NCBI GenBank assembly: GCA_044358835.1
Contig: JBIKNF010000004.1
Location: 20,047 to 84,046 of the forward strand
Direction: 5' to 3'
DNA from: Vampirovibrionales bacterium
GTDB taxonomy: Bacteria; Cyanobacteriota; Vampirovibrionia; Vampirovibrionales; JAJTHC01
Length of the DNA: 64,000 nucleotides
This document shows, one piece after another, positions 9,990 to 63,393 of the stretch (positions are counted from its first letter, which is position 1; every line of letters begins with the position of its first letter). The notes below the pieces were generated by a model. The model did no database searches, had not been told where the DNA came from, and was given only the letters and a program-made list of their open reading frames with translations. The translations under genes and the position numbers were made by a program.

Positions 9990-10099
9990 TTACAACGCTG
10001 CGGGCTGATACAAGAACGTGTAGTATTCAATCGCCATACGGTCGCTGTCAAAGTACAGAGAAGCAAACTGAATCGCCCGTTGCATCAATTCCGCCCACC
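9990..10099 (-). repeat. Displaced duplicate of the glgP 3' end (110-bp direct repeat)
   Basis: 108/110 identical to 10587-10696 and includes the TAA stop. Both differences are synonymous in the GlgP frame. Confidence 0.95.
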
Positions 10100-10542
10100 T
10101 ATATCGCATCAATATTGAAGTGGTATCCATGAATTTTTAATTTCTTACTTTGATCCTCACTCAAGCCAACGGTGGTTACAGCCTCTCCTTTTTGAAATTT
10201 ACCCTTAAATTCAATGCTATAGAAAATTCCCTCAGGGGTATATTGTACTTGAGTGGTAGCATCATCCCCCTTGTCACGTGTTAAGAATTTTCCTAAATGC
10301 TTATTTTGAAATATGAATATTTTTTTATTTTTATCTTTAGTCACTACTTTCTTATAGTCGTCTGTAGTTAATTCATTATAAATATCATCGTAGGCTTGAT
10401 CGTTATATTTTTTGTATAATTGATCTAAAGTAGCATTGATTTCAGGCTCTTTATCACCCAGTAGCGAGAAACAACCAGTCAAATTAGTACAAATTAAAAT
10501 AACCACAAAAACACCTATAATACTTCGTAATTGTTGAATCAT
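10099..10542 (-). CDS. AT-rich foreign-looking lipoprotein (147 aa)
   Basis: Lipobox LTGC and an AAGGA SD. The sequence is visibly much more AT-rich than its flanks and lies between the two glgP 3'-end repeats. Confidence 0.85.
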   Translation of the reverse strand: MIQQLRSIIGVFVVILICTNLTGCFSLLGDKEPEINATLDQLYKKYNDQAYDDIYNELTTDDYKKVVTKDKNKKIFIFQNKHLGKFLTRDKGDDATTQVQYTPEGIFYSIEFKGKFQKGEAVTTVGLSEDQSKKLKIHGYHFNIDAI

Positions 10543-10586
10543 TATTTCATCCTTCTGTAATTGAATACGGTAATATACAAAGGGTA

Positions 10587-12200
10587 TTACAAGGCTGCGG
10601 GCTGATACAAGAACGTATAGTATTCAATCGCCATACGGTCGCTGTCAAAGTACAGAGAAGCAAACTGAATCGCCCGTTGCATCAATTCCGCCCACCGTTG
10701 AGGGTGATCATAATACGTCGGCAAAACACGGTCTTCAATAATGGTCATCATGCTTTCATAATCGCGTTGGTGTAATTCTGCATCACTCGCATTACCACTG
10801 GTGCCTTCAGGATTGATGATGAAGCCGTTATACTCGTCAAAGGTACCTTCAACCGCCCAGCCGTCATCCGTAGACATATGCAAAGTTCCGTTAAAATTGG
10901 CAGACATCCCTGAAGTGCCTGAGGCTTCCAAGGGGCGCTGAGGCGTATTGAGCCATAAATCAGCCCCCCGCTTCATGCGACCGGAAAGTTCCAGTTCGTA
11001 ACCAGGTAAAATCGCCACACCCTTCATGGTTTTAGAAAGCGCAATCACATGGTTAAAGGTGTCACGTCCCCACGTGTCTTTGGGGTGAAACTTACCCGCA
11101 AACACGATTTGAAGCTTTTTAGAATCCAGCAAACGCTTAATGCGGGCCATGTCCTTAAAAATGAGATCCGCCCTCTTGTAAGCGGTAAAGCGTCTTGCCC
11201 ACACAATGGTAAAGACATCAGGATCCAAACTCGTGCCCGCTTCTTGGTTGACGAATTCAATGAACTCCTTACGCATGACTTTTTTAGCACTGAGCAGTTC
11301 TTCGGCGGTTTTGGCTTGGGCAATACGTTCGTCTTGCCAGTATTTTAAATTGGTGGCGTTAGTGACAGCGTGAATGTTGCAACGTCCTTGCACCCACTTC
11401 CACATATCGGCGGCGACTTCTCCATGAAGTTGAGACACCCCATTGGCGAGACGGCTTAAACGCAACGCCGCCACCGTCAAAGAAAAATGATCGCCCCCTA
11501 AACGGCAGGCTTCATCCCGATGGGTATTGACAAAAAAGCCCGCTTCTAGCAATAAATCTACAGGGTGAATTTCATTGCCCGCAGGCACAGGCGTATGCGT
11601 GGTAAACACAAGCTTTGAACGCACCAAGTCATAGTTATTTCCATAAAGCCTTAAAAGTTCAAACGCCGCTGGTAAGGCATGGCCTTCATTCATGTGTACG
11701 GTGTCATACTTTACGGAAAGAGCCGACAAGGCGCGCACGCCCCCCACGCCCAAAATAACTTCTTGAGCCACACGAATACGTTCATCCGCATCATAAAGCT
11801 TGTTGGAATAATCTCGCACGTGTTGGGGATTTTCAGGCAAATCAGTGGTTAGGAAGTAGCACGGGCATGTGCCGAAGGTCTTGGGTTCCAGCAAAAACGG
11901 CTTGACTTTGACGAGTTCACCGTAAATGGAAACATCAACCGTCACGCCTGTGTCAACCAAAAAGTCGTAGGAACGATCGACATACTTAATTTGAATTTCG
12001 TTATTTTCGTCGATGTATTGATCCCCATAACCCTGTTTCCAAAGAATGCTCACGCCCACCATAGGTAAGCCCAAGTTCCCTGCCGAAAGCATGTGAGAGC
12101 CTGACAAAAAGCCCAAGCCCCCAGAATAGGTATGAAAACTTTGATCAATCGCCATTTCCATGGTGAAGTAGGCCACTTTTTGTAAAAGAGCAAGATGCAT
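10587..12200 (-). CDS. glgP: Short alpha-glucan (glycogen/maltodextrin) phosphorylase, GT35 family
   Basis: YSGGLGFLSG, HMNEGH, FTTHTPVPAGNE, WARRFTAYKR and EASGTSGM motifs. Confidence 0.9.
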   Translation of the reverse strand: MHLALLQKVAYFTMEMAIDQSFHTYSGGLGFLSGSHMLSAGNLGLPMVGVSILWKQGYGDQYIDENNEIQIKYVDRSYDFLVDTGVTVDVSIYGELVKVKPFLLEPKTFGTCPCYFLTTDLPENPQHVRDYSNKLYDADERIRVAQEVILGVGGVRALSALSVKYDTVHMNEGHALPAAFELLRLYGNNYDLVRSKLVFTTHTPVPAGNEIHPVDLLLEAGFFVNTHRDEACRLGGDHFSLTVAALRLSRLANGVSQLHGEVAADMWKWVQGRCNIHAVTNATNLKYWQDERIAQAKTAEELLSAKKVMRKEFIEFVNQEAGTSLDPDVFTIVWARRFTAYKRADLIFKDMARIKRLLDSKKLQIVFAGKFHPKDTWGRDTFNHVIALSKTMKGVAILPGYELELSGRMKRGADLWLNTPQRPLEASGTSGMSANFNGTLHMSTDDGWAVEGTFDEYNGFIINPEGTSGNASDAELHQRDYESMMTIIEDRVLPTYYDHPQRWAELMQRAIQFASLYFDSDRMAIEYYTFLYQPAAL

Positions 12201-12359
12201 AAGGGGTAAATCCTTTCAAACTCTGAATGATTAGTTGGTGATATTCATTCAATTGTTTTTATAACTTTACTACAGTCTACCTTATCAGATTAAAAAAGTG
12301 CAAGCGTCTGGGGAACAAGATACTGTATCAGTGGGACGTCTTCTGCTATACTAAACGCT

Positions 12360-13676
12360 ATGCAAATACCACTATTTAAGCGCGCGCTTGCTTTACAAAA
12401 AAAGTCGCCCCTTCTAATTTTTTTGGGGGCCTTGTTGGTGAGTAGTTTCGTGTGGATGCTGTACCAGTCGTGGCACGCCGTTTTAGGGGGCGTGCCAAAT
12501 GGCAAAACCACCCTAACCCTTAGTGCGTGGGGAACGCTTGAAGAACGACAGACCTTGCAACGCCAAGTCGAAGCCTTTGAAAAAGCCCACCCCACCCTTG
12601 AAGTACACATTCGCCACATGCCTGATTTATACACCCAAGGTTTGCAAATGTTAATTGCGTCCAATCAAACGCCGGATGTCATGATGCTCAATAGTTTGGA
12701 TGTCCAACGCTTCTGCCAAGCAGGCTTGCTTGAAGACGCTTTTTCGCTGATTAAACACGAACAAAACGCCTTTTTCCCCACCGCCTTACGCAGTATGACT
12801 TCCCCCAACGGCACGCTTTGTGCGGTGCCTCGGGATGTGTCTAATTTAGTGGTGTATGTCAATCAAGACTTGCTTAAAACATTACCGCGCCATACGCAAG
12901 CCTTGTTAAACCCTTCGTGGCACTTAAGCAATTTACCCGCCATCGCTGAAGCTGTAGCCAACTTGCACCGTCAGCCCAAAACATGGGTGATGAGTTTTTA
13001 TCAAGCCCCTGCCTTATTTTGGCTACCCTTTGTGTGGAGTGAAGGGGGGGATGTGTTTAAAAATCAAACGATCCAATTTGACGCGGTTGCAATTCAAGCC
13101 TTGGCCCAGTACAAAGCCTTACGCCACAGCCCGCATTTGGCGCCTGATCGTCAAGAAATAGGCAATACCACCATGAGCGATCTTTTCTTGCAGGGGCGGC
13201 TACTGTGCTTGCTGAGCGGTCGATGGACGGTTCCCTTGCTACGAGAAAAGGCGTCTTTTTCGTGGGATGTGTTGCCCTTTCCTCAAGGCAAGGCGGGTTC
13301 TCGTGTGGGGATTGATTCCACAGGCTATGCCGTCAGTCGTCACAGTCCCCATCTCAAAGATGCACAAGCCCTCACGCGTTTTTTAAGTAGCGCTTCTGCG
13401 CAGCAAGCGTGGGTGCATTCGGGTTTAATCGTCCCAGCTCGCAAGGCACTCGCCACCCGAGATGCCTTCTTACAACGAGGAAAACTCCCCCAACATGCGG
13501 ACTATTTTATCACCGCCTTGTCTACAGGGGTGCCGAGTGCTTACCCCAAAACGTGGACGCACTTAGGTCAATCCCTCAATACGGCCATGGATGCCTATTT
13601 CAACACACCTGATTTGTCTTTAGAAGAGGCGCTAAACGGTGTTCAACTTCAAGGGGCTATGCCTTATGCGTCCTAA
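12360..13676 (+). CDS. Carbohydrate ABC transporter substrate-binding protein
   Basis: N-terminal membrane anchor, ASNQTPDV and LPFPQGK segments typical of sugar-binding proteins; overlaps the permease start. Confidence 0.85.
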   Translation: MQIPLFKRALALQKKSPLLIFLGALLVSSFVWMLYQSWHAVLGGVPNGKTTLTLSAWGTLEERQTLQRQVEAFEKAHPTLEVHIRHMPDLYTQGLQMLIASNQTPDVMMLNSLDVQRFCQAGLLEDAFSLIKHEQNAFFPTALRSMTSPNGTLCAVPRDVSNLVVYVNQDLLKTLPRHTQALLNPSWHLSNLPAIAEAVANLHRQPKTWVMSFYQAPALFWLPFVWSEGGDVFKNQTIQFDAVAIQALAQYKALRHSPHLAPDRQEIGNTTMSDLFLQGRLLCLLSGRWTVPLLREKASFSWDVLPFPQGKAGSRVGIDSTGYAVSRHSPHLKDAQALTRFLSSASAQQAWVHSGLIVPARKALATRDAFLQRGKLPQHADYFITALSTGVPSAYPKTWTHLGQSLNTAMDAYFNTPDLSLEEALNGVQLQGAMPYAS

Positions 13677-14559
13677 CCCCCGTCTTAATTTCAACCGTTG
13701 GATGCCTGGCCTATTTATCCTACCTGTTGTTGTGGGGCTTTTTTGCTTGAATTACATCCCGAGTTTTTACGCGTTTTATTTGAGCTTTCAGCAATGGAAC
13801 CTTTTAGAAGCTCCACAGTGGGTGGGGCTAGAAAACTACCAGCACCTTTTGGCTTCGCCCGCCTTTGTTCAAACCCTGCGTCAAACGGCGTATTATGTGG
13901 GCGGAATCGTTCTAGTTGAACTCTTGTGTTCAATCCTTATTGCAACAGCCTTGCATCGCCTAACCCGAGGCAAACGGCTGTTTCAAGTCTTGGCTTTTTT
14001 GCCCTATGTGACGCCTGCCATGGCGGCTAGCCTGATTTTTATGTGGATTTTTCAGCCTGAACAAGGCCTATTAAATAGTAGTTTACAAGCAGTGGGGGTG
14101 CTAAAAAGTCCGATTGCCTGGCTTTTTACGCCTCATACGGCCTTAATGGCCGTAATAAGCCTTGAAGTATGGAAAGCAACAGGCTATAATATGCTCTTAA
14201 TTTTGGGGGCCTTACAAGCCTTGCCCCAACACCTTGATGAAGCCGCAAGCTTAGATGGGGCGTCTGGCTTACGAAAATGGTGGTGGGTCACGCTCCCTCA
14301 GCTCATGCCCACCGTTTTACTAGTAGCCATGATGACGACCATTCATGCCCTACAAGCCTTTGACGCCATTTACTTGCTCACCCAAGGCGGGCCCAATCGC
14401 GCCACAACCGTTTTGGCCTACGCCTTGTATGAAACCGCGTTTCAGCGTTTTGAACTGGGGCAAGCCACCGCGTTGGGTGTTGTTATCTTTACCATTATTG
14501 CCATTTTAACTGGGTTACAATGGCGTTTGATACCATTTAAACGACTGAATAGCGTATAG
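13666..14559 (+). CDS. Carbohydrate ABC transporter permease (MalF/UgpA type)
   Basis: WVGLENY and the EAA loop LDEAASLDGAS..KWWWVTLPQL. The last 10 codons lie inside MITE A copy 2. Confidence 0.92.
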   Translation: MRPNPRLNFNRWMPGLFILPVVVGLFCLNYIPSFYAFYLSFQQWNLLEAPQWVGLENYQHLLASPAFVQTLRQTAYYVGGIVLVELLCSILIATALHRLTRGKRLFQVLAFLPYVTPAMAASLIFMWIFQPEQGLLNSSLQAVGVLKSPIAWLFTPHTALMAVISLEVWKATGYNMLLILGALQALPQHLDEAASLDGASGLRKWWWVTLPQLMPTVLLVAMMTTIHALQAFDAIYLLTQGGPNRATTVLAYALYETAFQRFELGQATALGVVIFTIIAILTGLQWRLIPFKRLNSV

Positions 14560-14677
14560 GTGGATTCTAGGAGCCTAGACTCGCAGATGGGTGAAGTGTA
14601 CATAAACGTACATAAGCACATCGAGAACCTGAGCGACAACGAAGACGCCAGACGCTATTTAATCGTTTAATTGGTAT
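14530..14677. mobile_element. MITE-like repeat family A, copy 2 (148 bp)
   Basis: 144/148 identical to 2892-3039. Confidence 0.85.
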
Positions 14678-14695
14678 GAGTCCAAGACGCAGTCC

Positions 14696-16105
14696 CTAGT
14701 GGTTTGAAACATTGCGAGGCAACAACAACGCCATGGTCGTGCCTTTTCCCAATTCTGACCACAACAATTTTGCCGTGCCTTCATGGGCCTGCATAATTTT
14801 ACGAATATACGCCAAGCCCAGCCCTGTGCCCGTGGCTTTGGTTGAAAAATAAGGCGTAAAAAGCTTTTCCACTTTGTCTTCAGCAATACCGACGCCTTCA
14901 TCTTTCACTTTAATGTACAAATGCGTATCATCTTTTCGACTGGCCAAAGAAACCGTCACTTTTTTCCCTTCTGTGGTGGCTTCTAAGGCATTTTTAAGCA
15001 AATTAATCAAGGCTTGACGCATACGACCTAAATCCAACGAAACCACTAAGCCCTTTTCATCAAGTGAATCCTTACTGAATTGCATTTCAATCTTTAAAAT
15101 CACGCCTTTTTCTTCGTATTTGGGACGATAAAACTCGCACACATCTTCTACAAATTGCTGAAGATTGACGCTTTCATACTGTAGTTCAAGTGGCCGAGAA
15201 TACTGCGTCAGTTCACTTAAAATAGTTTCTAAGTGCGCGGTGGCGTCTTTAATTTGATCGAGGTTTTTATGCAAGGCCTCAGGCACTTCTGCTGTTGTGG
15301 CCAGTTGCCCCAATTGCCCTTGAATAATTTGGGCGTATAGAGAAATCAACCCCAAGGGATTACGGATTTCATGAGCAATAACACTAGAAAGTTGGCCAAT
15401 GGCGGCCATGCGTTCTTGTTCAGCCATGCGACGAGACAGTTCTTTTTCTCGTTCCAAGGCCAACGTCAGTTCACGGTTACGATTTTCTAAGTTAGACAAG
15501 AGCGAAGAGACAATCAACGAAAGTTTGTTATCGTGACGAGCGTCAAAAGGGGCCTGTTCCACCGCCACGTGCAAGGCGTCATGCCCGAGCCATTCCGCCA
15601 AATACAGAGACAAATTTCGCACATCCGCAGGGTTAAAGCTCCAGCCCCCTTGATCCATACGAAAGGCTTGGGATGTTTCAGAATTCCAATGCACCACGGC
15701 ACTCAATTTGTCGCTTAACAACAACATAAAGCCTACGGTGGGGGAAATGAGGTTTTCTGAAATAGCGGATTCACATTGATCTAAATTGAACACATGTAAA
15801 CCCATCATGTTATGTAAGGGTAAACTCAACATGTTAAAGGTGTCGTCTTTCAACGTTCTTAGAATCACCACGCCGTTGATCTGTTGATCTCTGACCATGC
15901 GAATGAGTGAACCATAAATGTTTTGGAAGGTGGCTCTTGAAAACAGGCCCGTGTGGGCGGAAAGTTGATTGAGCATTTCGTCAAATTTAGGACGCGAGAC
16001 CACGGTGCTTTCATCGTCTTCTTCAAAGGGGTGAAATACATCAGAAATAGCAGACTCAAGCATCGCAGAAGCTCCCAAAATTGTGTGGTTTGCATAAGAA
16101 GTCAT
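14696..16105 (-). CDS. Soluble sensor histidine kinase, possibly with an N-terminal DICT/CHASE6-like domain
   Basis: H-box IAHEIRNPL, N-box QALINLLKNA, G1 DEGVGI, F-box LFTPYFSTK and G2 GTGLGL. Confidence 0.92.
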   Translation of the reverse strand: MTSYANHTILGASAMLESAISDVFHPFEEDDESTVVSRPKFDEMLNQLSAHTGLFSRATFQNIYGSLIRMVRDQQINGVVILRTLKDDTFNMLSLPLHNMMGLHVFNLDQCESAISENLISPTVGFMLLLSDKLSAVVHWNSETSQAFRMDQGGWSFNPADVRNLSLYLAEWLGHDALHVAVEQAPFDARHDNKLSLIVSSLLSNLENRNRELTLALEREKELSRRMAEQERMAAIGQLSSVIAHEIRNPLGLISLYAQIIQGQLGQLATTAEVPEALHKNLDQIKDATAHLETILSELTQYSRPLELQYESVNLQQFVEDVCEFYRPKYEEKGVILKIEMQFSKDSLDEKGLVVSLDLGRMRQALINLLKNALEATTEGKKVTVSLASRKDDTHLYIKVKDEGVGIAEDKVEKLFTPYFSTKATGTGLGLAYIRKIMQAHEGTAKLLWSELGKGTTMALLLPRNVSNH

Positions 16106-16282
16106 AAAAGAAAAGGAGTTTTTCGTTTAGATGTTTCCTATTATAGACCCGCTTTTTAATTATGGCTAGGTAAACGTCTTAACTCCTGTGAAACCCATCA
16201 AGCAGACGATTGCGCGGAGGCTTTCGCAAAACCTATAATGGTTGTATACTATCGTTATCTGGAAAGAAAGAAGAATCCTCCC

Positions 16283-18466
16283 ATGACCTCTGCCGTTCAA
16301 ATTCGTCTAACTCCCTTGCAAACCTTGGCTCAAGCCTACGGTATTTCCCTTGAATTTACAGATGCCTTCAACCAAGTGCAACAAACATCCCCCTATGCCC
16401 TTGAAAAAGTGTTAAATGCCTTGGGTGTTGGTTTTTGTGACACCGAAACGGCTTGTAAAAAACGCTTGGCCGAATGGGAAGAAGCCCAATGGAAGCCCGT
16501 TTTAGCACCCATGACGGTGTGGCGTCAAGGCGATGTGCAACCCCTTCGCATTCAACTGAATTTTATGCCCAAATCACCTGTTGATTGGAAAATTACGGAC
16601 GAATACGGCACTGTCTATACGGGTCAACTCGCCCTGAATCCGCTTAACAAAATTGATGAAAAAAGTTTTGACCGTCGTGGGCTTCTTTTTTCTAACAAAG
16701 AACTCCGTTTTGCGTGGCACTGGCATATTGAAGCGCAACTGCCCCAAGGGTATCATCAAATCGAACTGAGCTACCGTGGGGAACGTTTGGTGCAAAGCAA
16801 ATTGGCCGTAACTCCTCGTCATGCTTATATTCCTGAAGTGATGCAACAGGGCCAAGTATGGGGTGTTTCATCTCAACTTTATAGCTTTAAAAGTTCGCAA
16901 AATTATGGCATGGGCGATGTAAACGATCTACACTGCTTGGTAGATTCGCTTGCTGAAGTGGGGGCTTCGGCCATTGGCTTAAATCCCCTGCACCAAATTT
17001 TCCCGCATGATGCTTCGGCCATTAGTCCGTATTCGCCTTCAAGCCGTTTGTTTTTGAATTGGTTGTACATTCACCCGCAAAACAGTGTGGATTTTCATCA
17101 ATCCGAGGTGGCTCAGCTACTTTACACGCAAAACAAAAACGTGATAGATTCTGCGCGAAATAGTGAACTGGTGGATTATGAAACGGTGGCGGATGTAAAG
17201 CGTCCGATTTTAGAGGCGATGTTTCAAAGCTTTAGTGAAAATCACCTGGCGAAAGATTCGGATCGTGCCAAGGCCTATGTGGCCTTTATGAAACGTGAAG
17301 GCGATGCCTTACATCAGCTTGCCTTATACGAAGCGCTTTGCGAATATTTTCACACGCAAGATTCAAGCCTTTGGGGATGGCCAGTCTGGCCAGAAGCCTT
17401 CCGAAATCCTGACAGCCCTGAAGTAAAAACCGCTAGCGTGCGTTTGAATCAACGGGTTCAATTTTTTGCGTACCTTCAATTTTTAATGGATGAACAACTC
17501 ACGGCGGTGGCCCACCATTGCGAAGAACGCCACTTGCCCGTAGGGCTTTACATGGATTTAGCGGTGGGTTCTGGCATTGGAGGGGCTGATGTGTGGATGA
17601 ACCGTAGCCTCTATAGCACCAGTGCTTCTGTGGGTTGCCCGCCTGATTTATTCAACCAGCTGGGCCAAAACTGGGGCCTGCCCCCCATTCGACCCGAAGT
17701 CTTAAAGGCCCAACAGTTTGAACCGTTTATTCAATTGTTGCGTGCCAATATGAAGTACGCGGGTGCCTTGCGAATCGATCACGCCTTGGCTATTTTTAGA
17801 GCGTATTGGATTCCTGTTGGGGAAACCGGTCAACACGGGGCGTATGTCGACTATCCTTCCCATGAATTGCTGGGCTTGATTGCACTAGAAAGCCAACGGG
17901 CCAAGTGCTTGGTGATTGGGGAAGATTTAGGCACGGTTCCAAACTGGGTGCGTGACACCTTTATGGATTGGAACATTTTTAGTTACCGTATTTTTTACTT
18001 TGAACGTGGGGCAGGCAATCAGTATATTGCGCCGCAAGATTACCCTGAAAATGCCCTAGTCACCATTTCAACCCATGATTTACCGACCTTGCAAAGCTAT
18101 TGGCAGGGCAAAGATATTACGCTGAGAAATGAATTAAAGCTCTTTCCTACGCCAGAAAAGTTTGAAGAAGAATGGGCGGCTCGCCCCTTTGAGCGTCAAG
18201 CCTTGTTGGATGCGTTGATTCACAATAACGTGATGCCTGAAGGGTATAGTCATAATCAAGCGGATTACCCAGAGGCCCTGCCTCAAGCCATTGCTCATGC
18301 GGTAGATGCCTTTTTGGCTCATACCCCCAGCAAACTACGCATGCTACAACTTGAAGATGCCATGGGCTTAACGAGTCAAGTCAATATGCCGGGTACGGTG
18401 AACGAGCATCCCAATTGGCGACGCAAACACCCCGTAAAAGTGGATGAGATCAAGAACATTTTATAA
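16283..18466 (+). CDS. malQ: 4-alpha-glucanotransferase (amylomaltase, GH77)
   Basis: SPYSPSSRLF, DLAVG, PPDLFNQLGQNWG, LRIDH, GEDLG and THD catalytic motifs. Confidence 0.95.
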   Translation: MTSAVQIRLTPLQTLAQAYGISLEFTDAFNQVQQTSPYALEKVLNALGVGFCDTETACKKRLAEWEEAQWKPVLAPMTVWRQGDVQPLRIQLNFMPKSPVDWKITDEYGTVYTGQLALNPLNKIDEKSFDRRGLLFSNKELRFAWHWHIEAQLPQGYHQIELSYRGERLVQSKLAVTPRHAYIPEVMQQGQVWGVSSQLYSFKSSQNYGMGDVNDLHCLVDSLAEVGASAIGLNPLHQIFPHDASAISPYSPSSRLFLNWLYIHPQNSVDFHQSEVAQLLYTQNKNVIDSARNSELVDYETVADVKRPILEAMFQSFSENHLAKDSDRAKAYVAFMKREGDALHQLALYEALCEYFHTQDSSLWGWPVWPEAFRNPDSPEVKTASVRLNQRVQFFAYLQFLMDEQLTAVAHHCEERHLPVGLYMDLAVGSGIGGADVWMNRSLYSTSASVGCPPDLFNQLGQNWGLPPIRPEVLKAQQFEPFIQLLRANMKYAGALRIDHALAIFRAYWIPVGETGQHGAYVDYPSHELLGLIALESQRAKCLVIGEDLGTVPNWVRDTFMDWNIFSYRIFYFERGAGNQYIAPQDYPENALVTISTHDLPTLQSYWQGKDITLRNELKLFPTPEKFEEEWAARPFERQALLDALIHNNVMPEGYSHNQADYPEALPQAIAHAVDAFLAHTPSKLRMLQLEDAMGLTSQVNMPGTVNEHPNWRRKHPVKVDEIKNIL

Positions 18467-18473
18467 GTCTAAA

Positions 18474-18498
18474 AAAAGAGGGCATATTGCCCTCTTTT
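18474..18498 (+). terminator. Intrinsic terminator after malQ
   Basis: AAAAGAGGGC-ATATT-GCCCTCTTTT. Confidence 0.8.
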
Positions 18499-18772: not shown

Positions 18773-19540
18773 ATGAATCGTATTAGTTCCACTCCTTTTT
18801 CACCTTACGGAAACAGCCCGCCCGCTTTGATTTTTCCACCAGCTCAAGGGTATTCGAATGATTCAAACAATTACAGTAAATACCCCCCCGGTTCGCCTTT
18901 GGCCAATCCACCTTCGATTTATGGAAATACGTTTCAAGCGCCGCCTCGAACCATTTCTGCGTTCACAGGGTATGACCCCCGTGTGGGATATAATCCCACC
19001 GTCTATGACAGCCCTGTTAGGCACGATGGCTTTTTGGGGTATATGGCCCCTCAATATATTGGGCAATCTCCTGTTCCCGTGTATAGTTTAAAAGAACTCA
19101 TGTTGGGTCGTGGGGATGCGACGATTTATCCCTACCCGCCTAGCTATAACACACCGTTACCCGCTTACGCACCACTACAGAGCTATGGCCCACCGCAAAG
19201 CTACGGCCCACCACAGAGTTATGGCCCACCACAAAGCTACGCCGCGCCACCGCAGAGCTATGGCCAACCACAAAGCTACGCACCACCGCAAAGCTACGCA
19301 CCACCACAGATCTATGGCACACCGCAAAGCTACGGCCCACCACCCAGCTACGCGCCACCGCAAAGCTACGGCCCACCGCAGAGCTATGGCCAACCACAAA
19401 GCTACGCACCACCGCAGAGCTACGGCCCACCACAGTCACAGTTTACTAGTTTTCAATATACAGGGCCACGTAATGCTTTGCAGAACCCCATTTATGGGCC
19501 ACCCCAACAAACCCATCCCATGGGGGTTCGGTATTTTTAA
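18773..19540 (+). CDS. Low-complexity protein with (S-Y-G/A-P/Q-P-Q)n repeats
   Basis: 255-aa ORF. The third codon positions vary between repeat units while the amino-acid pattern is kept. Confidence 0.75.
   Translation: MNRISSTPFSPYGNSPPALIFPPAQGYSNDSNNYSKYPPGSPLANPPSIYGNTFQAPPRTISAFTGYDPRVGYNPTVYDSPVRHDGFLGYMAPQYIGQSPVPVYSLKELMLGRGDATIYPYPPSYNTPLPAYAPLQSYGPPQSYGPPQSYGPPQSYAAPPQSYGQPQSYAPPQSYAPPQIYGTPQSYGPPPSYAPPQSYGPPQSYGQPQSYAPPQSYGPPQSQFTSFQYTGPRNALQNPIYGPPQQTHPMGVRYF
19181..19435 (+). repeat. Intragenic tandem repeat: 14 units of 18 bp (one is 21 bp)
   Basis: Unit consensus AGCTAYGSCCMACCRCAR; 13x18+21=255 bp. Confidence 0.95.
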
Positions 19541-32150: not shown

Positions 32151-32390
32151 ACCAAAAAAGCGTGGGGTTTACGCACTAGGCAAAGCGCTTAAAAATACGT
32201 TATACTGAAAAAGAGTGGCTGTTTTGAACAGGCCTTCACACCCCCCAAAAAATCCTTGAAAATCGAGCAAAAAACCGACTTTTGTGGCCAAGAAACCGAC
32301 TTTTGTGGCCAGAAAACGGACTTTCGTGGCCAAGAAACCGACTTTCGTGGCCAGAAAACAGACTTTTGTGTGTCGGAAATTAGGCCATTT
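32151..32390. repeat. Family C dispersed element with a 5 x 21-bp tandem array, copy 1
   Basis: Homologous end to end to 49971-50190. GACT anchors at 32277, 32298, 32319, 32340 and 32361. Confidence 0.9.
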
Positions 32391-42343: not shown

Positions 42344-42489
42344 GGCTTTACCCCCTCTCCCTTAGGGAGAGGGTTGGGGTGAGGGATTCGGGATGTACAG
42401 TTTTAGCTGGTGTTTCCCTCCTCCTAGCGTAGCCCGCCATAGGCGAGACGTCCGACCTGAGGGAGTAGGAACAAAGCAAAAAAGGCTTT
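42344..42489. repeat. REP-like doublet (family D), copy 2
   Basis: CCCTCTCCCTTAGGGAGAGGGTTGGGGTGAGGG; homologous to 9846-9969 with a different insert in the second hairpin. Confidence 0.8.
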
Positions 42490-49970: not shown

Positions 49971-50190
49971 ACCAAAAAATAGTGGGGTTTAGCCACTGGG
50001 CAAAGGGCTTAAAAATAGGGTATACTGAAAAAGAGTGGCTTTTTTGAAGAAGCCTTCACACCCTCAAAAAACTCCTTGAAAATCGAGCGAAAAACAGACT
50101 TTCGTGTGTCGAAAATCGAGTTTCGTGTGTCGAAAATTAGGGTTTCGTGTGTCAGAAATCGACTTTCGTGTGTCGAAAATTAGGCCATTT
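49971..50190. repeat. Family C dispersed element with a 4-unit array (21/22/21-bp spacing), copy 2
   Basis: Homologous to 32151-32390. TTCGTGTGTC at 50101, 50122, 50144 and 50165. Flanked by family B end-like sequences at 49929-49940 and 50199-50221. Confidence 0.9.
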
Positions 50191-54093: not shown

Positions 54094-54114
54094 TGATGGC
54101 TGTAGGCTTGGTAT

Positions 54115-55065: not shown

Positions 55066-55165
55066 GCGCGCATCCTTTCTCATTTTACCAGTATAGCATA
55101 AAATAAGGCGTTTCCTTTCTTGAAAAAAAGGGGTATACTCACAACAGTCTTTAGGAGGATTCACC

Positions 55166-56948: not shown

Positions 56949-57027
56949 TGTTTCAGTTCCTTTTTCGTTTGGTTTAATTATTTTGAAAATTTAATTCGTG
57001 TAAAAAAATGCCGTATGCCTTGCTTTT

Positions 57028-58047
57028 TTAGTGGATAAATTGCTTCAGCACGTAAAAATACAAGGGAATCCCAAAGGTGACATTAAACGTAAAGGTGACC
57101 CCAAGCGCCACGGGTAACAGCAGGGACATATTGGCTTTGGGAATGGCCGTGCGCATGGCGGCAGGCACCGCGACATAAGACGCCGAAGAAATAAGCACCA
57201 TTAAAATCAATGCATCCCCCACGTGAAGGTTGAGCAGTCGGGCCAGGCCCAAGCCTACAGAAGCCCCCACCAAGGGGTACAACAGGCCAAAGCTAATCAA
57301 AAACCCACTGGATTCTTTGAAATCTGAAAAACGTTTGGCCGCAATAATGCCCATGTCTAACATGTAGAAGGACAACACGCCTTTAAAAATGTCGTCCACA
57401 AAAGGCTTGAGTTCTTCAGCCCCTGCTTTACCGCCTAAAATACCAATTACTAAACTGCCCACCAGCAATAAAACGGAACCATTTAAAAACGCTTCATGCA
57501 ATACCGCTTTTATGTTGACAGGTCGAGACGGACGCGGTTCTTGAAGTTCACCTGCCCCTTGTTGGGCAAGGGCTTCTTTACGCTGGGTTTTAGAAAGTTG
57601 ATACAAAAGTAAACCCGCAATAATGGCAGGGGATTCCATAAGCGCCATACAGGCAACCATGTAGCCTGAAAATTCCGTATGCTGTGTGCCTAAGAAAGAC
57701 ACGGCGGTGGCAAAAGTCACCGCACTGACTGAACCATATGTTGCGGCAATGGCTGAAGCATCGTGTGGTTTTAATTTAAAACGCAAAATTTTATATAAGC
57801 CAAAGGGCATTAAAAAGGACACCGAAATACAGACGAGCATCATCACAATCATGTGAGGATCTAAGCCACTTTTAAAGAGGGCTTCCCCCCCGTGGATCCC
57901 AATGTCAAACAACAAATATAGGGACAAAAACTTACTAATTTGCGAAGGAATTTCAAGGTTAGAACGCACCATAACAGACGTTAAACCCAAGATAAAAAAC
58001 ATCACGGGCGGGTGCATCACATTTTGTAACAGGGATTCTACAAACAT
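57028..58047 (-). CDS. sbtA: Sodium-dependent bicarbonate transporter family permease (SbtA/DUF897)
   Basis: PPVMFFILG, SNLEIP, YLLFDIGIHGG, YGSVSAVTF, MALMESPAII, SASYVAVPAAMR and GVTFTFN. Confidence 0.9.
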   Translation of the reverse strand: MFVESLLQNVMHPPVMFFILGLTSVMVRSNLEIPSQISKFLSLYLLFDIGIHGGEALFKSGLDPHMIVMMLVCISVSFLMPFGLYKILRFKLKPHDASAIAATYGSVSAVTFATAVSFLGTQHTEFSGYMVACMALMESPAIIAGLLLYQLSKTQRKEALAQQGAGELQEPRPSRPVNIKAVLHEAFLNGSVLLLVGSLVIGILGGKAGAEELKPFVDDIFKGVLSFYMLDMGIIAAKRFSDFKESSGFLISFGLLYPLVGASVGLGLARLLNLHVGDALILMVLISSASYVAVPAAMRTAIPKANMSLLLPVALGVTFTFNVTFGIPLYFYVLKQFIH

Positions 58048-58282
58048 ACAGACTACCTCTTTGCATCGATGCTAAAGTCGCCCAATCGAAAAGAAAAGGA
58101 ACGCCGCAGCAGAGGCTTACTTGGGGGAGGGGCTTTTTCTACTATAAACGTCTACCCCAAAAGGGACAAGTTCTTTTCAGAAAAACCCCGCTTTTCAGGG
58201 GGGGGTAAAAGTGTCGTGAGTCTTGAACATTATGGTATAATGCCCGTATTGTGTTATTGTTCCTAATTTGATGAGGTGCCTT

Positions 58283-59176
58283 ATGAAACGTCTTTTTTCA
58301 GTCCTATGGGTGGTGTTCAGTGTGCTAATCACGTGTGCGAACGTTTCACCCGCTGTGTATGCCGCCACCCCTGAAGCAGAAGCTTACTATACCCAAGCCA
58401 TGCAAGCTTACGAACAAAAAGGCTTTATTCAAGCCGCTAGCCTCTTTCAAAAGGCCGCTGAAGCAGACAATACCTACATTGACGCGTGGTTTAACCTAGG
58501 GGCTGTTCAGTACAGACTTAATAAGTATGAAGAGGCGCGTAATGCCTTTCAAAAAGCGTTGTGGCGTTCCCCCAATGACAATGAAATTCGCTACAACTTA
58601 GGGGCTTCGCTCGCTAAGTTGGGGCGTAATACCGAAGCGTTGGAACAATTCAATAAAATTCCTGCCACCCACCCCAAGTACTCGGAAGCCCAAACGCAAC
58701 TCGCTTCCTTAAACAAATCCACCGTGGTGACTAAACCGACTGTGGCAACCAAACCTACCCCAGTAGCCAAAAAAAGCCAAACAAACGTCAATGCCGTGGC
58801 CCTTGGTGGCACAGGGCTCTATGCCAAGGGGTTGGTTGGCCCTACTGGCATTGCCGTGGGCAGTAACGGTGAACTGTATGTGGCGAATTACACAAAAAAT
58901 AACATTGTGCGCATTTTGCCCAACGGCAGTCAAAGCACCTTGGCACAAGGGGGCTTGATCAATGGGCCTATTGGTTTGGTGCGGGATCCTCGAAATGGGA
59001 ACCTGTATGTGGCCAACTACATTAGCGGAGAAATCGTAAGCATTAGCCCCAGTGGCACGATTAGTTCCCTGAAAAAAGGCTACGGCAAGCCGTATTACTT
59101 GTATTTTGACGCCCTGACCAATCGGTTGTTTGTGTCTGAACAAGAAGGCAATCAGGTTTCGGTAATTAAGCTCTAA
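58283..59176 (+). CDS. Exported TPR-repeat protein with C-terminal NHL/beta-propeller domain
   Basis: Signal peptide, TPR motifs (AWFNLGAVQYRL, IRYNLGASL) and NHL-like repeats (GPTGIAV..NGELYVAN). Confidence 0.85.
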   Translation: MKRLFSVLWVVFSVLITCANVSPAVYAATPEAEAYYTQAMQAYEQKGFIQAASLFQKAAEADNTYIDAWFNLGAVQYRLNKYEEARNAFQKALWRSPNDNEIRYNLGASLAKLGRNTEALEQFNKIPATHPKYSEAQTQLASLNKSTVVTKPTVATKPTPVAKKSQTNVNAVALGGTGLYAKGLVGPTGIAVGSNGELYVANYTKNNIVRILPNGSQSTLAQGGLINGPIGLVRDPRNGNLYVANYISGEIVSISPSGTISSLKKGYGKPYYLYFDALTNRLFVSEQEGNQVSVIKL

Positions 59177-59276
59177 TCAATGTTCCACGCCCCCTTGGGA
59201 AACTTAAGGGGGCATTTTCAAGATTATGGCTTGACTCTCATCTATGCTTGGCTTACTCTTATACAAGTTCAAGAAT

Positions 59277-59348
59277 GCGTCCATAGCTCAGCGGTAGAGC
59301 AGTCCCCTTTTAAGGGAAAGGTCCTGAGTTCGAATCTCAGTGGACGCA
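59277..59348 (+). tRNA. tRNA-Lys (TTT), CCA not encoded
   Basis: Acceptor GCGTCCA/TGGACGC, D-arm GCTC/GAGC, anticodon loop CTTTTAA and T-arm CTGAG-TTCGAAT-CTCAG. Promoter TTGACT-17-TACTCT at 59231-59259. Confidence 0.96.
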
Positions 59349-59350
59349 TA

Positions 59351-59383
59351 AAAGCCCCACAACTTGCTTGTTGGGGCTTTTTT
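59351..59383 (+). terminator. Intrinsic terminator after tRNA-Lys
   Basis: AAAGCCCCA(C)AAC-TTGCTT-GTTGGGGCTTT plus a T run. Confidence 0.85.
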
Positions 59384-59520
59384 ATACAAGAAAAGGCAAA
59401 CGTCGATTTTCCACCATATAGGGGATGCTTTTCACAAGTCGTTTTGGTATCGTATACTTAATGTACACCTCAAGGCTAGTTGCGACTGCGTTGAGCCTAA
59501 CACAAGGATTGATCTGAGTG

Positions 59521-59970
59521 ATGATGATGATGTCTCTTTCAAACACGACCCTTCGCCCCAGTCGAAGACGCACCCCCCCCGCTCAAGAAAGCCACACCCC
59601 CACCGTGTGGATCGTGGAAGATGAAGCCAAGTGGCAAGACGCCTTTTCACTTCTAGTGGGCATGGCCTTTGCGGGTGCTCACATTCAACAAGCGGATTGT
59701 GCCGAAAAAACGCAAGATTGGTTGACCCTTAGTGCCAAGCAAACGGCCCCCCAGTGGGCGGATGCCGTGTTGATGGATTGGCAGCTCGCCAATGGCGATG
59801 ACGGCTTGGCGTTGGTGAACGCGTGGGTGGAAGCGGGTTTGCCAGCAGAACGAGTGATTATCGTGAGTGGGGCGGATGATGTGCCGTCGCATCCTTACAC
59901 AGTGGTGACCAAATCGCAAGCTGGGGCTTTGCTGGTGCCGACCCTATTGCAACTGGCGAATAAAGTCTAA
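59521..59970 (+). CDS. Stand-alone response-regulator receiver protein
   Basis: VWIVEDE, phospho-acceptor VLMDW, IIVSG and VVTKS. Confidence 0.8.
   Translation: MMMMSLSNTTLRPSRRRTPPAQESHTPTVWIVEDEAKWQDAFSLLVGMAFAGAHIQQADCAEKTQDWLTLSAKQTAPQWADAVLMDWQLANGDDGLALVNAWVEAGLPAERVIIVSGADDVPSHPYTVVTKSQAGALLVPTLLQLANKV
59946..59970. repeat. 25-bp direct repeat, left boundary of the RT islet
   Basis: ATTGCAACTGGCGAATAAAGTCTAA, identical to 61950-61974. Confidence 0.95.
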
Positions 59971-60081
59971 GGTCTCTTTAAGCTGTCCCACTTGTGGGTT
60001 AAGGGGCGGTTAAACCCTAGACTCCGTTTGTGGTATCATAATTCTCTTAGGTTTGTTTTATTTGTGGAGTGTCCTTTTATT

Positions 60082-61905
60082 ATGGTAGATATATTACCTA
60101 TATTTTTAGATGACAAACAGGCTGATTTTTTTACAAACACGGATAAAATCCCACCTTATTTTACGACCAAGTTTTTTTTTGATTTTATCAATAAACAAAA
60201 AAAAATAAACACATTGTTGACAAAAAAGATTAAAGAAACCAAATGCCTTCGATTTACAGCACCCAATAAAAAAACTTCACATAGAAGAGAATTAAAAGTT
60301 CCAAACCCTTATGTATACTTACAATTAGCTCATAAAGTATCAGAACTCTACACAAAGCAACAAGATAAAGACACAGTCCCAAATTTAAAAACAGATAAGC
60401 TCTTGAACCTTCAGTTTGAAAAAGAAAAACCTATCTTAAAAAAACATGACGTAATCAGTTCAAGGTGTTACAAGGATGTTCAAGGCTATTCTTATCATTT
60501 AAAAATAGACATCAGTCAATTTTATCCAAGTATTTACACTCATTCAATACCATGGGCTGTTTTAGGAAAAAAGGATGCAAAGAAAAAGTATAATGATTCG
60601 AGTCTTAAATGTGATCTATATAAGTTAGGGGATGAAATAGACAAATTACTAGAAAAGATGAATAGCAAGCAAACCAAAGGAATACCTGTTGGAGCGACGT
60701 TATTTCATTTTGTGGCAAAGCTAATTACAGACAGAATAGATAAAGAATTTAGTGATTTTATTGAAAAAGGCAAGATAGATTGTGAGTTTAGTCATTATGT
60801 AGATGATTACTACGTATTTTGTCATAGTGAAGCAGATGCAAATCGTCTTCTTTCTGAATTCGGAAACATTTTAAATCGCTATGAATTACATATAAATGCT
60901 AACAAAACCCAAATTACTCATGTTGATGAATGGTCAGTTCTCCCTTTTTGGCGACCCATTATAGAAGAAGTATTAGATGTATTTAATGATTTAAAAAATG
61001 ATGTTCTTTGGTCAAAATTAACCGAAAAAAGACTATTACGCTGTTTTGAAAGAATAAGGCAATTAAGAAAAGGGAAATATAAAGCAGAACAGCATTTAAA
61101 TTATTTCCTTTCATCCTTATTGAGTCTTTTAGAAAAACCTTTATTAGAATATTACGCTATTCTCTTCATGAATTTTTTAATAGAAGTTTCTAAAGATCCT
61201 CTAGAGGTTACTTTAATGTATCCACGACCTTCTTCTCCATTATTTATAAGTCTTTACCTGAGTGTTCATGACTTTCAAACACTTGTAGAGACCTTTATTC
61301 TTCCTTTCATTATGCAATGTATTTCACTAGAACCTTCAACCATTCGATACATAGCGGAGCAAAAAACTGTTAAAATGCTCAAACCTTTCCTTCAGAACAA
61401 TGAAAAGTCTAAGAAAGTAATAAAAGCGACTCTTCAAAAAACGATAGACCGTTATTACACTCAAGAGCTGATGTGGGTATTGTATGTTTTGATTGAATAT
61501 GAGCTATTAGATATTGTTGCTAATGATAAAAATGATCTATACGAGAGACTCAAGGAATATCCTAACTCAATGGTAAAATGTTTAGTTATGGAAATTGAAC
61601 TTGATCCAAATTTTTGTAGTGGTTTTGAAGAAAGTTTATTCGAGAAAACAAAATCGGACTATAAAAAATTTAAAGATGAAGATTGGAAGGATCTATTTAA
61701 AAGTGAAGATTGGCTTTTGTACTTTTTTATGCGAGGCAAGGGACGTGAACAAAATGAGGATTTCACACTCTGCGAAACAGGCATCCCGTTAATAGATAAT
61801 TTTTTCAAAGCGACGACAGGAAACAAAACGTTTTTTGATAAAGAGGCTAAAGTTCTCAAACGAAGCTATTATGACCCACATTTTCAGAATGATGCATCAT
61901 CCTAA
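60082..61905 (+). CDS. Abi/UG-class reverse transcriptase (AbiK-like), 607 aa, probable anti-phage protein
   Basis: RRELKVPNP, DISQFYPSIYTHSIPWA, QTKGIPVG, HYVDDY and INANKT motifs, plus a long helical C-terminal region. Visibly AT-rich; ATG at 60082 after a GGAG SD. Confidence 0.9.
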   Translation: MVDILPIFLDDKQADFFTNTDKIPPYFTTKFFFDFINKQKKINTLLTKKIKETKCLRFTAPNKKTSHRRELKVPNPYVYLQLAHKVSELYTKQQDKDTVPNLKTDKLLNLQFEKEKPILKKHDVISSRCYKDVQGYSYHLKIDISQFYPSIYTHSIPWAVLGKKDAKKKYNDSSLKCDLYKLGDEIDKLLEKMNSKQTKGIPVGATLFHFVAKLITDRIDKEFSDFIEKGKIDCEFSHYVDDYYVFCHSEADANRLLSEFGNILNRYELHINANKTQITHVDEWSVLPFWRPIIEEVLDVFNDLKNDVLWSKLTEKRLLRCFERIRQLRKGKYKAEQHLNYFLSSLLSLLEKPLLEYYAILFMNFLIEVSKDPLEVTLMYPRPSSPLFISLYLSVHDFQTLVETFILPFIMQCISLEPSTIRYIAEQKTVKMLKPFLQNNEKSKKVIKATLQKTIDRYYTQELMWVLYVLIEYELLDIVANDKNDLYERLKEYPNSMVKCLVMEIELDPNFCSGFEESLFEKTKSDYKKFKDEDWKDLFKSEDWLLYFFMRGKGREQNEDFTLCETGIPLIDNFFKATTGNKTFFDKEAKVLKRSYYDPHFQNDASS

Positions 61906-61947
61906 CTAATCTTAATACCTCACCTCCCCCGCACTCCCATGGTAAGC

Positions 61948-63393
61948 TCATTGCAACTGGCGAATAAAGTCTAACGCCTCTTCTTTGCTATGGATGCGTC
62001 CCAAGGCGTGGGCGTCTTTGAGTTGTGCCAAGATCTGCCCTACCCGAGGGCTCGGGGGAATCCCCAACGCCTGCATGATGCTTTCACCGTCCAACAACGG
62101 CGGAGCCTGCCGTTGAGCCTTCCCCTGCCAATAGCGATGCAACAAATCCAGCAAGTCCGCTTGAGCCGTCGCCAAGGCTTCAGTCGTAAAGGCGTGACCC
62201 CGTGTACTTAAGGTATCCGCCAACGCCAGCACGATGAGAAAGGGCGTGTCTTCTGCGATACGCCGAAAAAAGCGGAGCCTGCTTTTTTCACTGCTTTGCT
62301 CGTCAAACGTACAGGGGTACAAATGCCATTCCACCAAGCGACTCACCCGATGCTTCACCGCTTGGCTCAGTTTCCATTCACTCAACAAAGGGCTAAGCAC
62401 GTCGACTCCCTTTTTTTCATGCCCGATGAATCGGTGCCGAAAGTTGGGTTCTACCTGCCATGTGTGCGGTTTGGCAATATCGTGAAACAGGCACGCCATT
62501 TTGACCAAGCCGTATTCGCTCGCCCCATGACTGCTGGGTTGTGTTAAGGCGTTTTGGGTGTGGGCGTCTAAAATAGGGTAAATGAGTTCAGCTTGACGGA
62601 TGAGTTCTAGGCTATGTTCCCACAACGGCAAGTGATGATGCGAATTGGGACTCACCATTTTCAGCGCTTTTAGGGGGGGGAACAACGCTTCTAAAATGCC
62701 AGCATCCGCCATGATTTGCATCGTGGGGAAGGCGTTTTCGGCGGAAAGCAACTTAAACCACTCGACTGCCATGCGTTCTTTGGCGACGCTATGTAAGTAA
62801 GGTAGGCAGGCTTTTGCCCAGTTTAAGGTTTTGGCTTCAATTGTAGTAGGGGTTTGAGCCGTGTTTAAGCTCGCATGAAAGCGAAAGATCCGTAAAATCC
62901 GCAAGGGATCGTCCTTAAGATTCTCAAGGCTCAAGGCTCGAATCACGCCAGCGTCTAAATCCGCTTGCCCCTCGTATAAATCGAGCAATTCACCGCGTTG
63001 CGTATGCACCGCTAGAGTATTGAGGCTTAAATCCCGACGCGCCAAGTCCGCTGTAATATCATCCCCTTGCACCTGAACGACATCCAAAAATAGCGGCGGG
63101 CGTTGCGTGTCTTCATGCAAGAAAACGACCCGATAAATCCCCCACGATTCATCCAACACCACCAACCGTGTATGCGGAACGGCGTCTTGCACGGCGTGAG
63201 CCACCGCTTTGGCGGACGCTCCCACAATACTCACGTCTATATCTTCAAGGGGAAAGGGCTTGTTGAGTAGTGCATCTCGAACGGCACCCCCCACGATGTA
63301 AGCGTCTGCTCCAGCGAAGGCTTTTAGCGCCTCATTTAGGGCGACAATGCGAACATCACTTAAAAGTTGGGCGAAAACATTAGTCGGATTCAT
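61948..63393 (-). CDS. cca: Class II tRNA nucleotidyltransferase with HD domain (probably CC-adding)
   Basis: IVGGAVRDALL, DIDV, DLARRDLSLN, DDPLRILRIFRF, ERMAVEWFKLL and LFHDIAKP. Confidence 0.88.
   Translation of the reverse strand: MNPTNVFAQLLSDVRIVALNEALKAFAGADAYIVGGAVRDALLNKPFPLEDIDVSIVGASAKAVAHAVQDAVPHTRLVVLDESWGIYRVVFLHEDTQRPPLFLDVVQVQGDDITADLARRDLSLNTLAVHTQRGELLDLYEGQADLDAGVIRALSLENLKDDPLRILRIFRFHASLNTAQTPTTIEAKTLNWAKACLPYLHSVAKERMAVEWFKLLSAENAFPTMQIMADAGILEALFPPLKALKMVSPNSHHHLPLWEHSLELIRQAELIYPILDAHTQNALTQPSSHGASEYGLVKMACLFHDIAKPHTWQVEPNFRHRFIGHEKKGVDVLSPLLSEWKLSQAVKHRVSRLVEWHLYPCTFDEQSSEKSRLRFFRRIAEDTPFLIVLALADTLSTRGHAFTTEALATAQADLLDLLHRYWQGKAQRQAPPLLDGESIMQALGIPPSPRVGQILAQLKDAHALGRIHSKEEALDFIRQLQ
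61950..61974. repeat. 25-bp direct repeat, right boundary of the RT islet
   Basis: Identical to 59946-59970; on the minus strand it encodes LDFIRQLQ of the cca-family gene. Confidence 0.95.

Follow-up and report, generated by a model that had tools for sequence, protein, structure and literature searches.

Single-gene inserts between duplicated core-gene ends in a Vampirovibrionales genome, and how they may have arisen

This study addresses the question of how a single AT-rich gene, with no recombinase of its own, can come to lie between two copies of the 3′ end of a core gene. Two such inserts are present in the stretch of DNA analysed here (the window), which comprises 64,000 nucleotides (nt) of contig JBIKNF010000004.1 from a Vampirovibrionales bacterium. 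The first carries a lipoprotein gene and lies behind an alpha-glucan phosphorylase gene (case 1), and the second carries a reverse transcriptase (RT) gene and lies between a receiver-domain-like gene and the gene for the CCA-adding enzyme (case 2). Both are true insertions relative to the empty sites of close relatives, and both sites are variable slots that hold different cargo in different lineages. In each case the sequences point to a duplication of about 100–110 nt that begins at the stop codon of the core gene. We lean, though not strongly, towards reading both loci as recombinase-independent insertions with long target duplication. The host is a Vampirovibrio-like, freshwater member of the Vampirovibrionales. 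Its CCA-adding enzyme and phosphorylase have their homologues in freshwater metagenomes and in metagenome-assembled genomes (MAGs) labelled Vampirovibrionales, Vampirovibrio sp. or Melainabacteria, which places the genome among the non-photosynthetic relatives of cyanobacteria. For one related organism, Vampirovibrio sp. OL03a, the complete chromosome (2.04 Mb) is available.

The two inserts and their empty alleles

The inserts measure 487 bp (case 1) and 1979 bp (case 2), contain one open reading frame (ORF) each, and have GC contents of 31% and 32%, compared with 46.7% for the window; they are the only gene-containing AT-rich stretches returned by a window-wide low-GC scan. The direct repeat of case 1 is 110 nt long, with copies at 9990–10099 and 10587–10696 (spacing 597) that agree at 108 of 110 positions (98%). 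That of case 2 is an exact 25-nt sequence, ATTGCAACTGGCGAATAAAGTCTAA, at 59946–59970 and 61950–61974, which a repeat search extends to 33 nt at 94%. By our own calculation, about 2e-6 pairs of an exact 25-mer would be expected by chance in 64 kb, so that neither repeat is a chance match. Searches with Pfam and PADLOC profiles found no recombinase or transposase domain in either insert, DUF4019 and RVT_1 being the sole Pfam matches. The original prediction, that each of the two AT-rich genes stands alone, without a recombinase, between direct repeats of a core-gene 3′ end, holds good at both loci.

Case 1 reads entirely on the minus strand. The phosphorylase gene (10587–12200; 537 amino acids, aa; Pfam PF00343, Phosphorylase, E 3.5e-16) ends in repeat copy A (10587–10696), which is its in-frame last 110 nt including the TAA stop. 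A 44-nt spacer (10543–10586) with an AAGGA-type ribosome-binding site leads from that stop to the start of the lipoprotein ORF (10099–10542; 147 aa, lipobox LTGC, DUF4019 E 7.7e-07, 31% GC), and beyond it lies repeat copy B (9990–10099), an orphan phosphorylase 3′ end. The two copies differ by T/C and C/G, both changes being synonymous, and the same variants are found in functional phosphorylase genes of relatives (e.g., L035). To judge from the spacer, which offers a ribosome-binding site only, the lipoprotein gene appears promoterless. The single consensus-like match in a promoter scan upstream of it is located within copy A (TTGACA, an 18-nt spacer and AATACT, minus strand, at 10619–10648 and, being part of the repeat, also at 10022–10051); as a consensus match only, the site in copy A could drive the lipoprotein gene. 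No close homologue of the lipoprotein was found among 5.8 billion proteins, the word-indexed and exhaustive protein searches returned only remote relatives of at most 34% identity, and no PADLOC profile matched it.

Eleven contigs that encode an identical phosphorylase protein were compared. Six of them (L001–L004, L007 and L009) carry an empty allele with no lipoprotein gene and one repeat copy, the 110-nt repeat giving one blastn match per empty locus, and the rest have the lipoprotein gene and both copies. A single species-level population is thus polymorphic for the presence or absence of the insert. The slot is also empty in the sister species L032 and L036. Its occupant in L034 is a 375-aa GNAT-like gene and in L035 a 155-aa truncated form of the same gene, both of them read from the opposite strand; neither is accompanied by a duplication. 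The repeat is therefore not a universal signature of such slots. Two contigs, L006 and L008, from different samples and different assemblers, both end at window position 10244/10245, 297 nt into the lipoprotein gene, which may reflect strain variation or a coverage break. The contig of L036 (JBEISK010000008.1) belongs to a MAG labelled Gammaproteobacteria, yet its phosphorylase is 97% identical to that of the window and it has the same neighbour gene as the Vampirovibrionales loci, so it is probably mis-binned or mislabelled.

In case 2, the receiver-domain-like gene (59518–59970, plus strand) ends in repeat copy 1 (59946–59970), which includes its TAA stop. The CCA-adding enzyme gene (61948–63393, minus strand; assigned with Pfam) faces it, and repeat copy 2 (61950–61974) spans its last codons and two of the three stop bases. 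Between the two copies lie, on the plus strand, a decayed orphan remnant of the CCA gene 3′ end (59971–60009), which ends at the GGGCTNGGGG homeology with the RT upstream region, then the 5′ region of the RT cassette (60010–60081), the RT ORF (60082–61905; 607 aa, 31% GC) and a 3′ flank (61906–61949). The 5′ region is conserved with the RT copy upstream of speB in L051, and its TTAAAC, 18-nt spacer and TGGTATCAT (extended −10-like) presumably form a promoter. The catalytic YxDD motif of the RT is present as YVDD, and the protein matches RVT_1 of Pfam (E 9.5e-16) and the PADLOC profiles Drt6 (E 2.6e-72) and Drt4 (E 1.3e-57). Its closest solved structures, from matches to the PDB, are UG15/DRT4-type RTs, Abi-P2 and AbiK, its identity to characterised members is low, and no Rfam RNA was found near it. 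On these profile matches it is a class 1 UG/Abi defence-type RT, nearest to DRT6 and DRT4.

The slot between the CCA and receiver genes is empty in L025, L029 and L030 (CCA enzyme 85–91% identical), where the two genes are convergent, overlap by 27 bp and carry a single copy of the repeat. This empty overlap is the ancestral state, because the most distant relative, L030, shows it as well. In L027 and L028 the slot holds another AT-rich gene, in the opposite orientation, whose 290-aa product has a signal peptide and matches PDZ weakly; here the overlap region is present in two copies, each of which has diverged. The expectation that these gene 3′ ends are variable slots, to be checked by cargo turnover, is supported by the empty and other-cargo alleles at both sites. 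A third variable slot was seen between PrmA and RsmE, where an extra gene of 142–148 aa occurs in L029 (2030–2666) and L053 (4521–5145), with 43% identity between the two and 38–39% GC. This gene is missing from L027 and L030, in which PrmA and RsmE are 12 bp apart. A check of whether this slot might be a third case, made in L029 and L053, revealed no clear duplication on its flanks.

Original length of the duplication and a second location of the reverse transcriptase

The difference in length between the two repeats, which the original prediction had stressed, largely disappears when the relatives of case 2 are considered. In L055, whose RT is 88–90% identical, the left flank of the RT promoter corresponds to the 3′ coding region of the CCA gene (51 of 55 nt match), and the left and right ends together make up about 96 nt of the CCA gene 3′ end. 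In L053 the orphan remnant just behind the receiver stop aligns with that contig's own CCA gene at a point 36 nt further in, and 18 of 20 nt match, a score reached by none of 500 shuffles; the equivalent match in the window (13 of 16) is reached by 58 of 500 shuffles and is not significant alone. An alignment (A8) reveals an identical 36-nt deletion in the window and L053, internal to the remnant when it is set against the CCA gene. The left flank of L055, the orphan of L053 and the shared deletion indicate, therefore, that the duplication was originally longer. It ran from the stop codon (61950) to about 62048–62058, that is, ~96–110 nt, and the 25-bp repeat is a remnant of it, kept by selection. 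The orphan copy has, on this alignment, decayed except for the 25 nt that encode the last residues of the receiver protein.

L053 and L054 carry the RT with both junctions as in the window, and their own repeat copies differ at six positions. Identical junctions together with diverged copies mean that the RT insertion was one old event. The RT-bearing lineages are not sisters on the CCA-gene tree, the distribution of the RT is patchy, and the CCA gene is mosaic between lineages, so that homologous recombination or deletion between the repeats probably shapes the present distribution. In a check for co-transfer, based on flank similarity beside the RT between two RT-bearing lineages, the 3′ part of the CCA gene proved to be conserved in all pairs anyway.

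Homologues of the RT (about 80–83% identical protein) are also found at a different site, next to speB: OL03a (L050) has its copy between speE and speB, and L051 and L052 have theirs on the upstream side of speB. A search for flanking direct repeats of at least 14 nt that bracket the RT found none at these loci. The 3′ flank of the RT in the window aligns with the speB ribosome-binding site, ATGG and beyond in L050–L052; specifically, positions 61930–61949 (CGCACTCCCATGGTAAGCTC) correspond to the start of the speB gene that lies beside the RT there, with its ribosome-binding site and first codons. The AAAGGATACNCCCATGGCA motif of this flank also precedes the host gene RsmE, and is therefore host-type sequence rather than AT-rich cassette DNA. 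The identities between RTs are 85–90% among the copies in the CCA slot, 82–85% between CCA-slot and speB-slot copies, and 80% between the two deeper speB-slot copies. From the speB-like 3′ flank and this pattern of identities, we infer that the cassette was copied from the site upstream of speB into the CCA slot, carrying about 12 nt of speB with it. This direction predicts the start region AAAGGATACACTCCCATGG in speB loci that lack the RT, and it would be confirmed if AAAGGATACACTCCCATGGCAAATTTAG is the native speB start. Short identities are present at both joints of the case 2 insert. At the stop-codon joint, TTA is common to speB and the target, and at the other joint the sequence GGGCT(A/C)GGGGG occurs in the CCA gene (62048–62058) and in the RT upstream region of L051.

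A truncated large serine recombinase, reduced to its C-terminal 218 aa (Zn_ribbon_recom, E 3.2e-07), is encoded in L051 (1943–2638) immediately ahead of the speB-linked RT, and it is also present in L052 (4–573). In L051 this truncated ORF overlaps the 3′ end of a tRNA-Leu(tag) gene, and the two together look like a decayed integrative element. Since the RT of L051 abuts the truncated recombinase, it may be that the RT first entered the genus on a classical integrative element.

Possible routes of insertion

In a recombinase-independent insertion, a DNA segment with a single gene would be joined directly behind the stop codon of a core gene by illegitimate, microhomology-guided recombination. 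The event would most likely proceed by template switching during replication, or by the joining of ends from two copies of the chromosome whose breaks lay about 100 bp apart. In the former case, replication would leave the CCA gene about 100 nt past the stop codon, copy the RT region, and return at the stop codon. One event of this kind would leave a second copy of the last 100–110 bp of the gene beyond the insert, the proximal copy preserving the core gene and the distal copy being an orphan. The orphan would decay save where it is needed, as at the RT locus, where it encodes the C-terminus of the convergent, overlapping receiver-like gene and where, after the 36-nt deletion, only 25 nt would have stayed identical. 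The RT cassette itself would derive from the older site just upstream of speB in the same genus, bringing the speB ribosome-binding site and first codons along. Homologous recombination in the conserved flanks and deletion between the repeats could then spread or remove an insert, giving empty, occupied and differently occupied alleles. The absence of a recombinase, the unrelated targets, the speB copy without repeats, the carried-over host DNA and the microhomologies together argue against a site-specific recombinase. The original prediction had likewise reasoned that no single enzyme of this kind was responsible, and the absence of a common motif in the repeats and the unrelated, repeat-free speB locus agree with it.

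Several observations weigh against this account. The occupied allele of case 1 departs from the empty alleles not only by the insert but for another ~160 bp past the orphan copy, with a MITE-like element (miniature inverted-repeat transposable element) and a different terminator loop, so that the empty alleles at hand are not the exact pre-insertion state. The terminator loop of the occupied allele resembles that of the sister species L036; the occupied haplotype looks older, and it probably entered the population, or moves within it, by homologous recombination. No source locus for the lipoprotein could be traced by protein searches, and the junction microhomology is thus uncheckable in that case. 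At the RT locus, the ribosome-binding site and ATG may be native to the cassette, and the move may have run from the CCA slot to speB instead. That both junctions fall precisely on a stop codon, and that both duplications are of much the same length, could speak for a dedicated mechanism instead of random illegitimate events that selection has filtered. Lastly, the first and last 30 nt of the L055 sequence are the same, as in a circular or tandem form, which would favour a route by way of a circle and a crossover.

That route, a capture of the Campbell type, is the main rival, although rather unlikely in our judgement. A small circle, consisting of the cargo and about 100 bp of the core-gene 3′ end, would integrate by one RecA-mediated crossover and so give rise to the repeats; recombination between the repeats would free the circle again, which could enter empty strains after DNA uptake. 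The order of gene end, cargo and gene end is the exact product of one crossover, the case 1 copies bear different allelic variants as if one came from a donor, and re-integration would easily explain identical junctions in non-sister lineages. L055 is a 2077-nt Logan contig with the same 30 nt at 1–30 and 2048–2077 (k−1 for a k=31 assembly), and two readings of it are open: a unitig that a direct repeat in the chromosome delimits at both ends, or the cassette in circular or tandem form. If its ends are closed, the contig contains the RT cassette and one uninterrupted 96-nt copy of the CCA gene 3′ end, as would an excised circle or a tandem array, but identical 30-nt contig ends also arise when a k=31 assembly meets a chromosomal direct repeat. 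The first circle would, moreover, still need two illegitimate joints, one between the speB start and the CCA stop and the other between the CCA gene interior and the RT upstream region, so that the model does not dispense with the illegitimate event but only puts a further step after it. For the lipoprotein gene, neither a circle nor a plasmid-like copy was seen in the contigs and protein searches, and the sequence past the orphan copy of case 1 differs from the empty alleles, which also speaks against this route. A bolder possibility, which we regard as decidedly unlikely, is that this lineage, and perhaps others too, has a dedicated process by which single-gene cassettes are inserted exactly at stop codons, each time with a fixed duplication of ~100–110 bp. 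Such a process may cycle through small excised circles of cargo and one gene-end copy, as L055 suggests when read as closed, and these would integrate anew in empty strains. If true, there would be a mobile unit that does without a recombinase and has a borrowed gene end as its sole 'att site'.

It is more doubtful still that the inserts are remnants of larger integrative elements (a prophage, an integrative and conjugative element (ICE) or an island) whose recombinase has since been deleted, the repeats being attL and attR. It is common for an integrative element to bring its own copy of the 3′ end of the gene that it enters and so to leave that gene whole, and the arrangement at both loci is of this form. 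The truncated serine recombinase and tRNA-Leu beside the RT in L051 would also fit, as would a tRNA-Lys(ttt) gene in the window (59276–59349), which is 170 bp upstream of the receiver-like gene and 600 bp from the RT insert. Nevertheless, all relatives, those with an empty site among them, have the receiver gene that separates this tRNA gene from the insert. In L025, whose site is empty, ARAGORN detected no tRNA gene and other genes lie beyond the receiver gene, and synteny on that side therefore also varies. In none of the relatives does either slot hold a larger element; it is empty, or it holds one gene, which may be the same or a different one. The end of the RT cassette is host speB sequence rather than an element end, and the same cassette stands at speB without repeats. 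There was likewise no sign of a phage carrier, as neither cargo and neither repeat sequence gave a match when viral contigs were scanned.

Most improbable of all is a trans-acting site-specific system (integron-like, Xer-dependent or similar) that inserts promoterless or single-gene cassettes near stop codons, a notion to which the duplications starting exactly at stop codons, their similar original lengths, the apparently promoterless lipoprotein gene and a 12-mer in both repeats (TGCAACNGGCGA; 11 of 12 positions, a score reached by 14 of 500 shuffles) lend themselves, but which is opposed by the different positions and orientations of the 12-mer relative to the junctions, the lack of attC-like or terminal inverted repeats at the cassette ends, the RT at a third, unrelated site without repeats, the host DNA from the previous site at cassette ends, and the other cargo found in the same slots without duplication. 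The 12-mer (10671–10682 and 59948–59959/61952–61963, in opposite orientation relative to the duplicated gene) is a marginal match and probably due to chance, and the motif comparison of the two duplicated sequences gave no convincing common motif.

Known systems and significance

Insertion with long target duplication, reportedly described by Nobusato et al. 2000 and recognised since then in genome comparisons, chiefly for restriction–modification genes, is the closest known kind of rearrangement, so that the pattern has already been named and is not new. Restriction–modification genes have been found inserted in this way with target duplications of 30–420 bp, without mobility genes and by a mechanism that was left unexplained, often in competent species and with some repeats overlapping gene 3′ ends (PMC2853133; Furuta, Abe and Kobayashi 2010). 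Our literature search for integrase-free defence inserts flanked by direct repeats found nothing closer than that study. Four of its five criteria describe both cases. The insert is absent from relatives with aligned flanks (in case 1 from L001–L004, L007 and L009, as compared with the window and L005; in case 2 from L025, L029 and L030), a single repeat copy is present in the insert-less genomes of both cases, the duplication exceeds 30 bp (110 nt in case 1; in case 2, 25 nt exact now and ~96 nt in L055), and the inserts (487 and 1979 bp) are below 20 kb and without mobility genes. The fifth, restriction and modification cargo, does not apply to a lipoprotein and an RT, and it defined the search set of that study rather than the type of rearrangement. 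The likeness extends to repeats far longer than the target duplications of transposons, to inserts whose GC is often below that of the genome, to some repeats that overlap a gene 3′ end, and to cargo that is defence-related in at least one case. The present loci differ in their cargo (a DRT-type RT and a lipoprotein), in their Vampirovibrionales host, in duplications that start exactly at a stop codon in both cases, and in that for one of them, the RT, the source locus and both junction microhomologies can be read. With a lipoprotein as cargo, an insertion driven by the cargo's own cutting of DNA cannot apply there.

A second comparison is with the minimal mobile elements of Neisseria, said to have been described by Saunders and Snyder 2002. 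These are exchanged, it is thought, by homologous recombination in the conserved flanks, natural transformation being established in Neisseria. As in those elements, whole-gene cassettes vary between two conserved genes and have no mobility genes. Each slot occurs in three states: that between the CCA and receiver genes is empty or holds the RT or the 290-aa PDZ-like gene, and that behind the phosphorylase is empty or holds the lipoprotein or the 375-aa GNAT-like gene. The CCA gene flanking the former slot is mosaic. Unlike the present inserts, however, the Neisseria elements are not defined by duplication of a flanking gene end. The RT resembles the defence RTs DRT6, DRT4, AbiK and Abi-P2 in being a single gene with its own conserved upstream region, which is a likeness of the cargo and not of the insertion. 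DRT4 and DRT6 are single-gene abortive-infection systems that make single-stranded DNA by protein-primed, template-independent synthesis (PMC12783706), and protein-primed DNA synthesis and protection against phages are putative properties of the RT by analogy with them.

Other classes were considered and rejected. Integrative elements with attL and attR share with the inserts repeats that correspond to the 3′ end of a target gene which stays intact, but the inserts are only 0.5 and 2 kb, have no integrase in or beside them, and include host DNA at a cassette end. A site-specific integrative element was also rejected on the grounds that the repeats are unrelated and the RT stands at speB without any, the truncated serine recombinase lying near the RT in L051 and L052 only. 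Integron cassettes would require an attC-like inverted repeat, of which there is none at either end, and no integrase is encoded in the window's flanks of the inserts. Transposons, insertion sequences (IS) and MITEs do not fit inserts without terminal inverted repeats at their ends and with duplications of 25–110 nt rather than 2–14 bp. A diversity-generating retroelement is at odds with an RT of the class 1 UG/Abi clade, with identical repeat copies in case 2, and with the differences of case 1, which are T/C and C/G and have no RT adjacent to them.

Some neighbouring features of the window also deserve description. The MITE-like palindromic element of case 1 (9845–9965, no strand assigned; ~120 nt with 41-nt arms) lies directly downstream of copy B and is missing from the empty alleles of the phosphorylase slot. 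A second copy is found at about 42345–42475, and translation of the element yields PLGEGWGEG-type peptides. Adjoining the same slot, a 484-aa gene (8088–9542) has repeated, YNPY-rich termini that differ in length among relatives. Further away, a repeat with an 18-nt period (19148–19467) encodes a QSYGPP-type Pro/Tyr-rich protein (ORF 18773–19540), and an intergenic array at 32247–32372 consists of five or six tandem 21-nt units (CAAGAAACCGACTTTTGTGGC-like), with a related pair of units 18 kb off, at 50088–50172.

The supposition that such slots take up defence-type cargo applies to the RT, but not to the lipoprotein, which matches no PADLOC profile, nor to the alternative cargos, a PDZ-like secreted protein and a GNAT-like protein. 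The two loci show that cargo other than restriction–modification genes is also moved by insertion with long target duplication, and in a distant phylum with small genomes. A lipoprotein cannot cut DNA, and yet its gene was inserted with a long duplication in the way that restriction–modification genes are. In the RT case the old site, the new site and both joints are readable, and these point to microhomology-guided joining, with testable predictions. Where convergent genes overlap, selection can pare such a duplication down until a short, exact repeat is left, which may be mistaken for the att site of a recombinase. For the annotation of genomes such as these, small defence genes can occupy slots beside core genes without any of the hallmarks of a mobile element.

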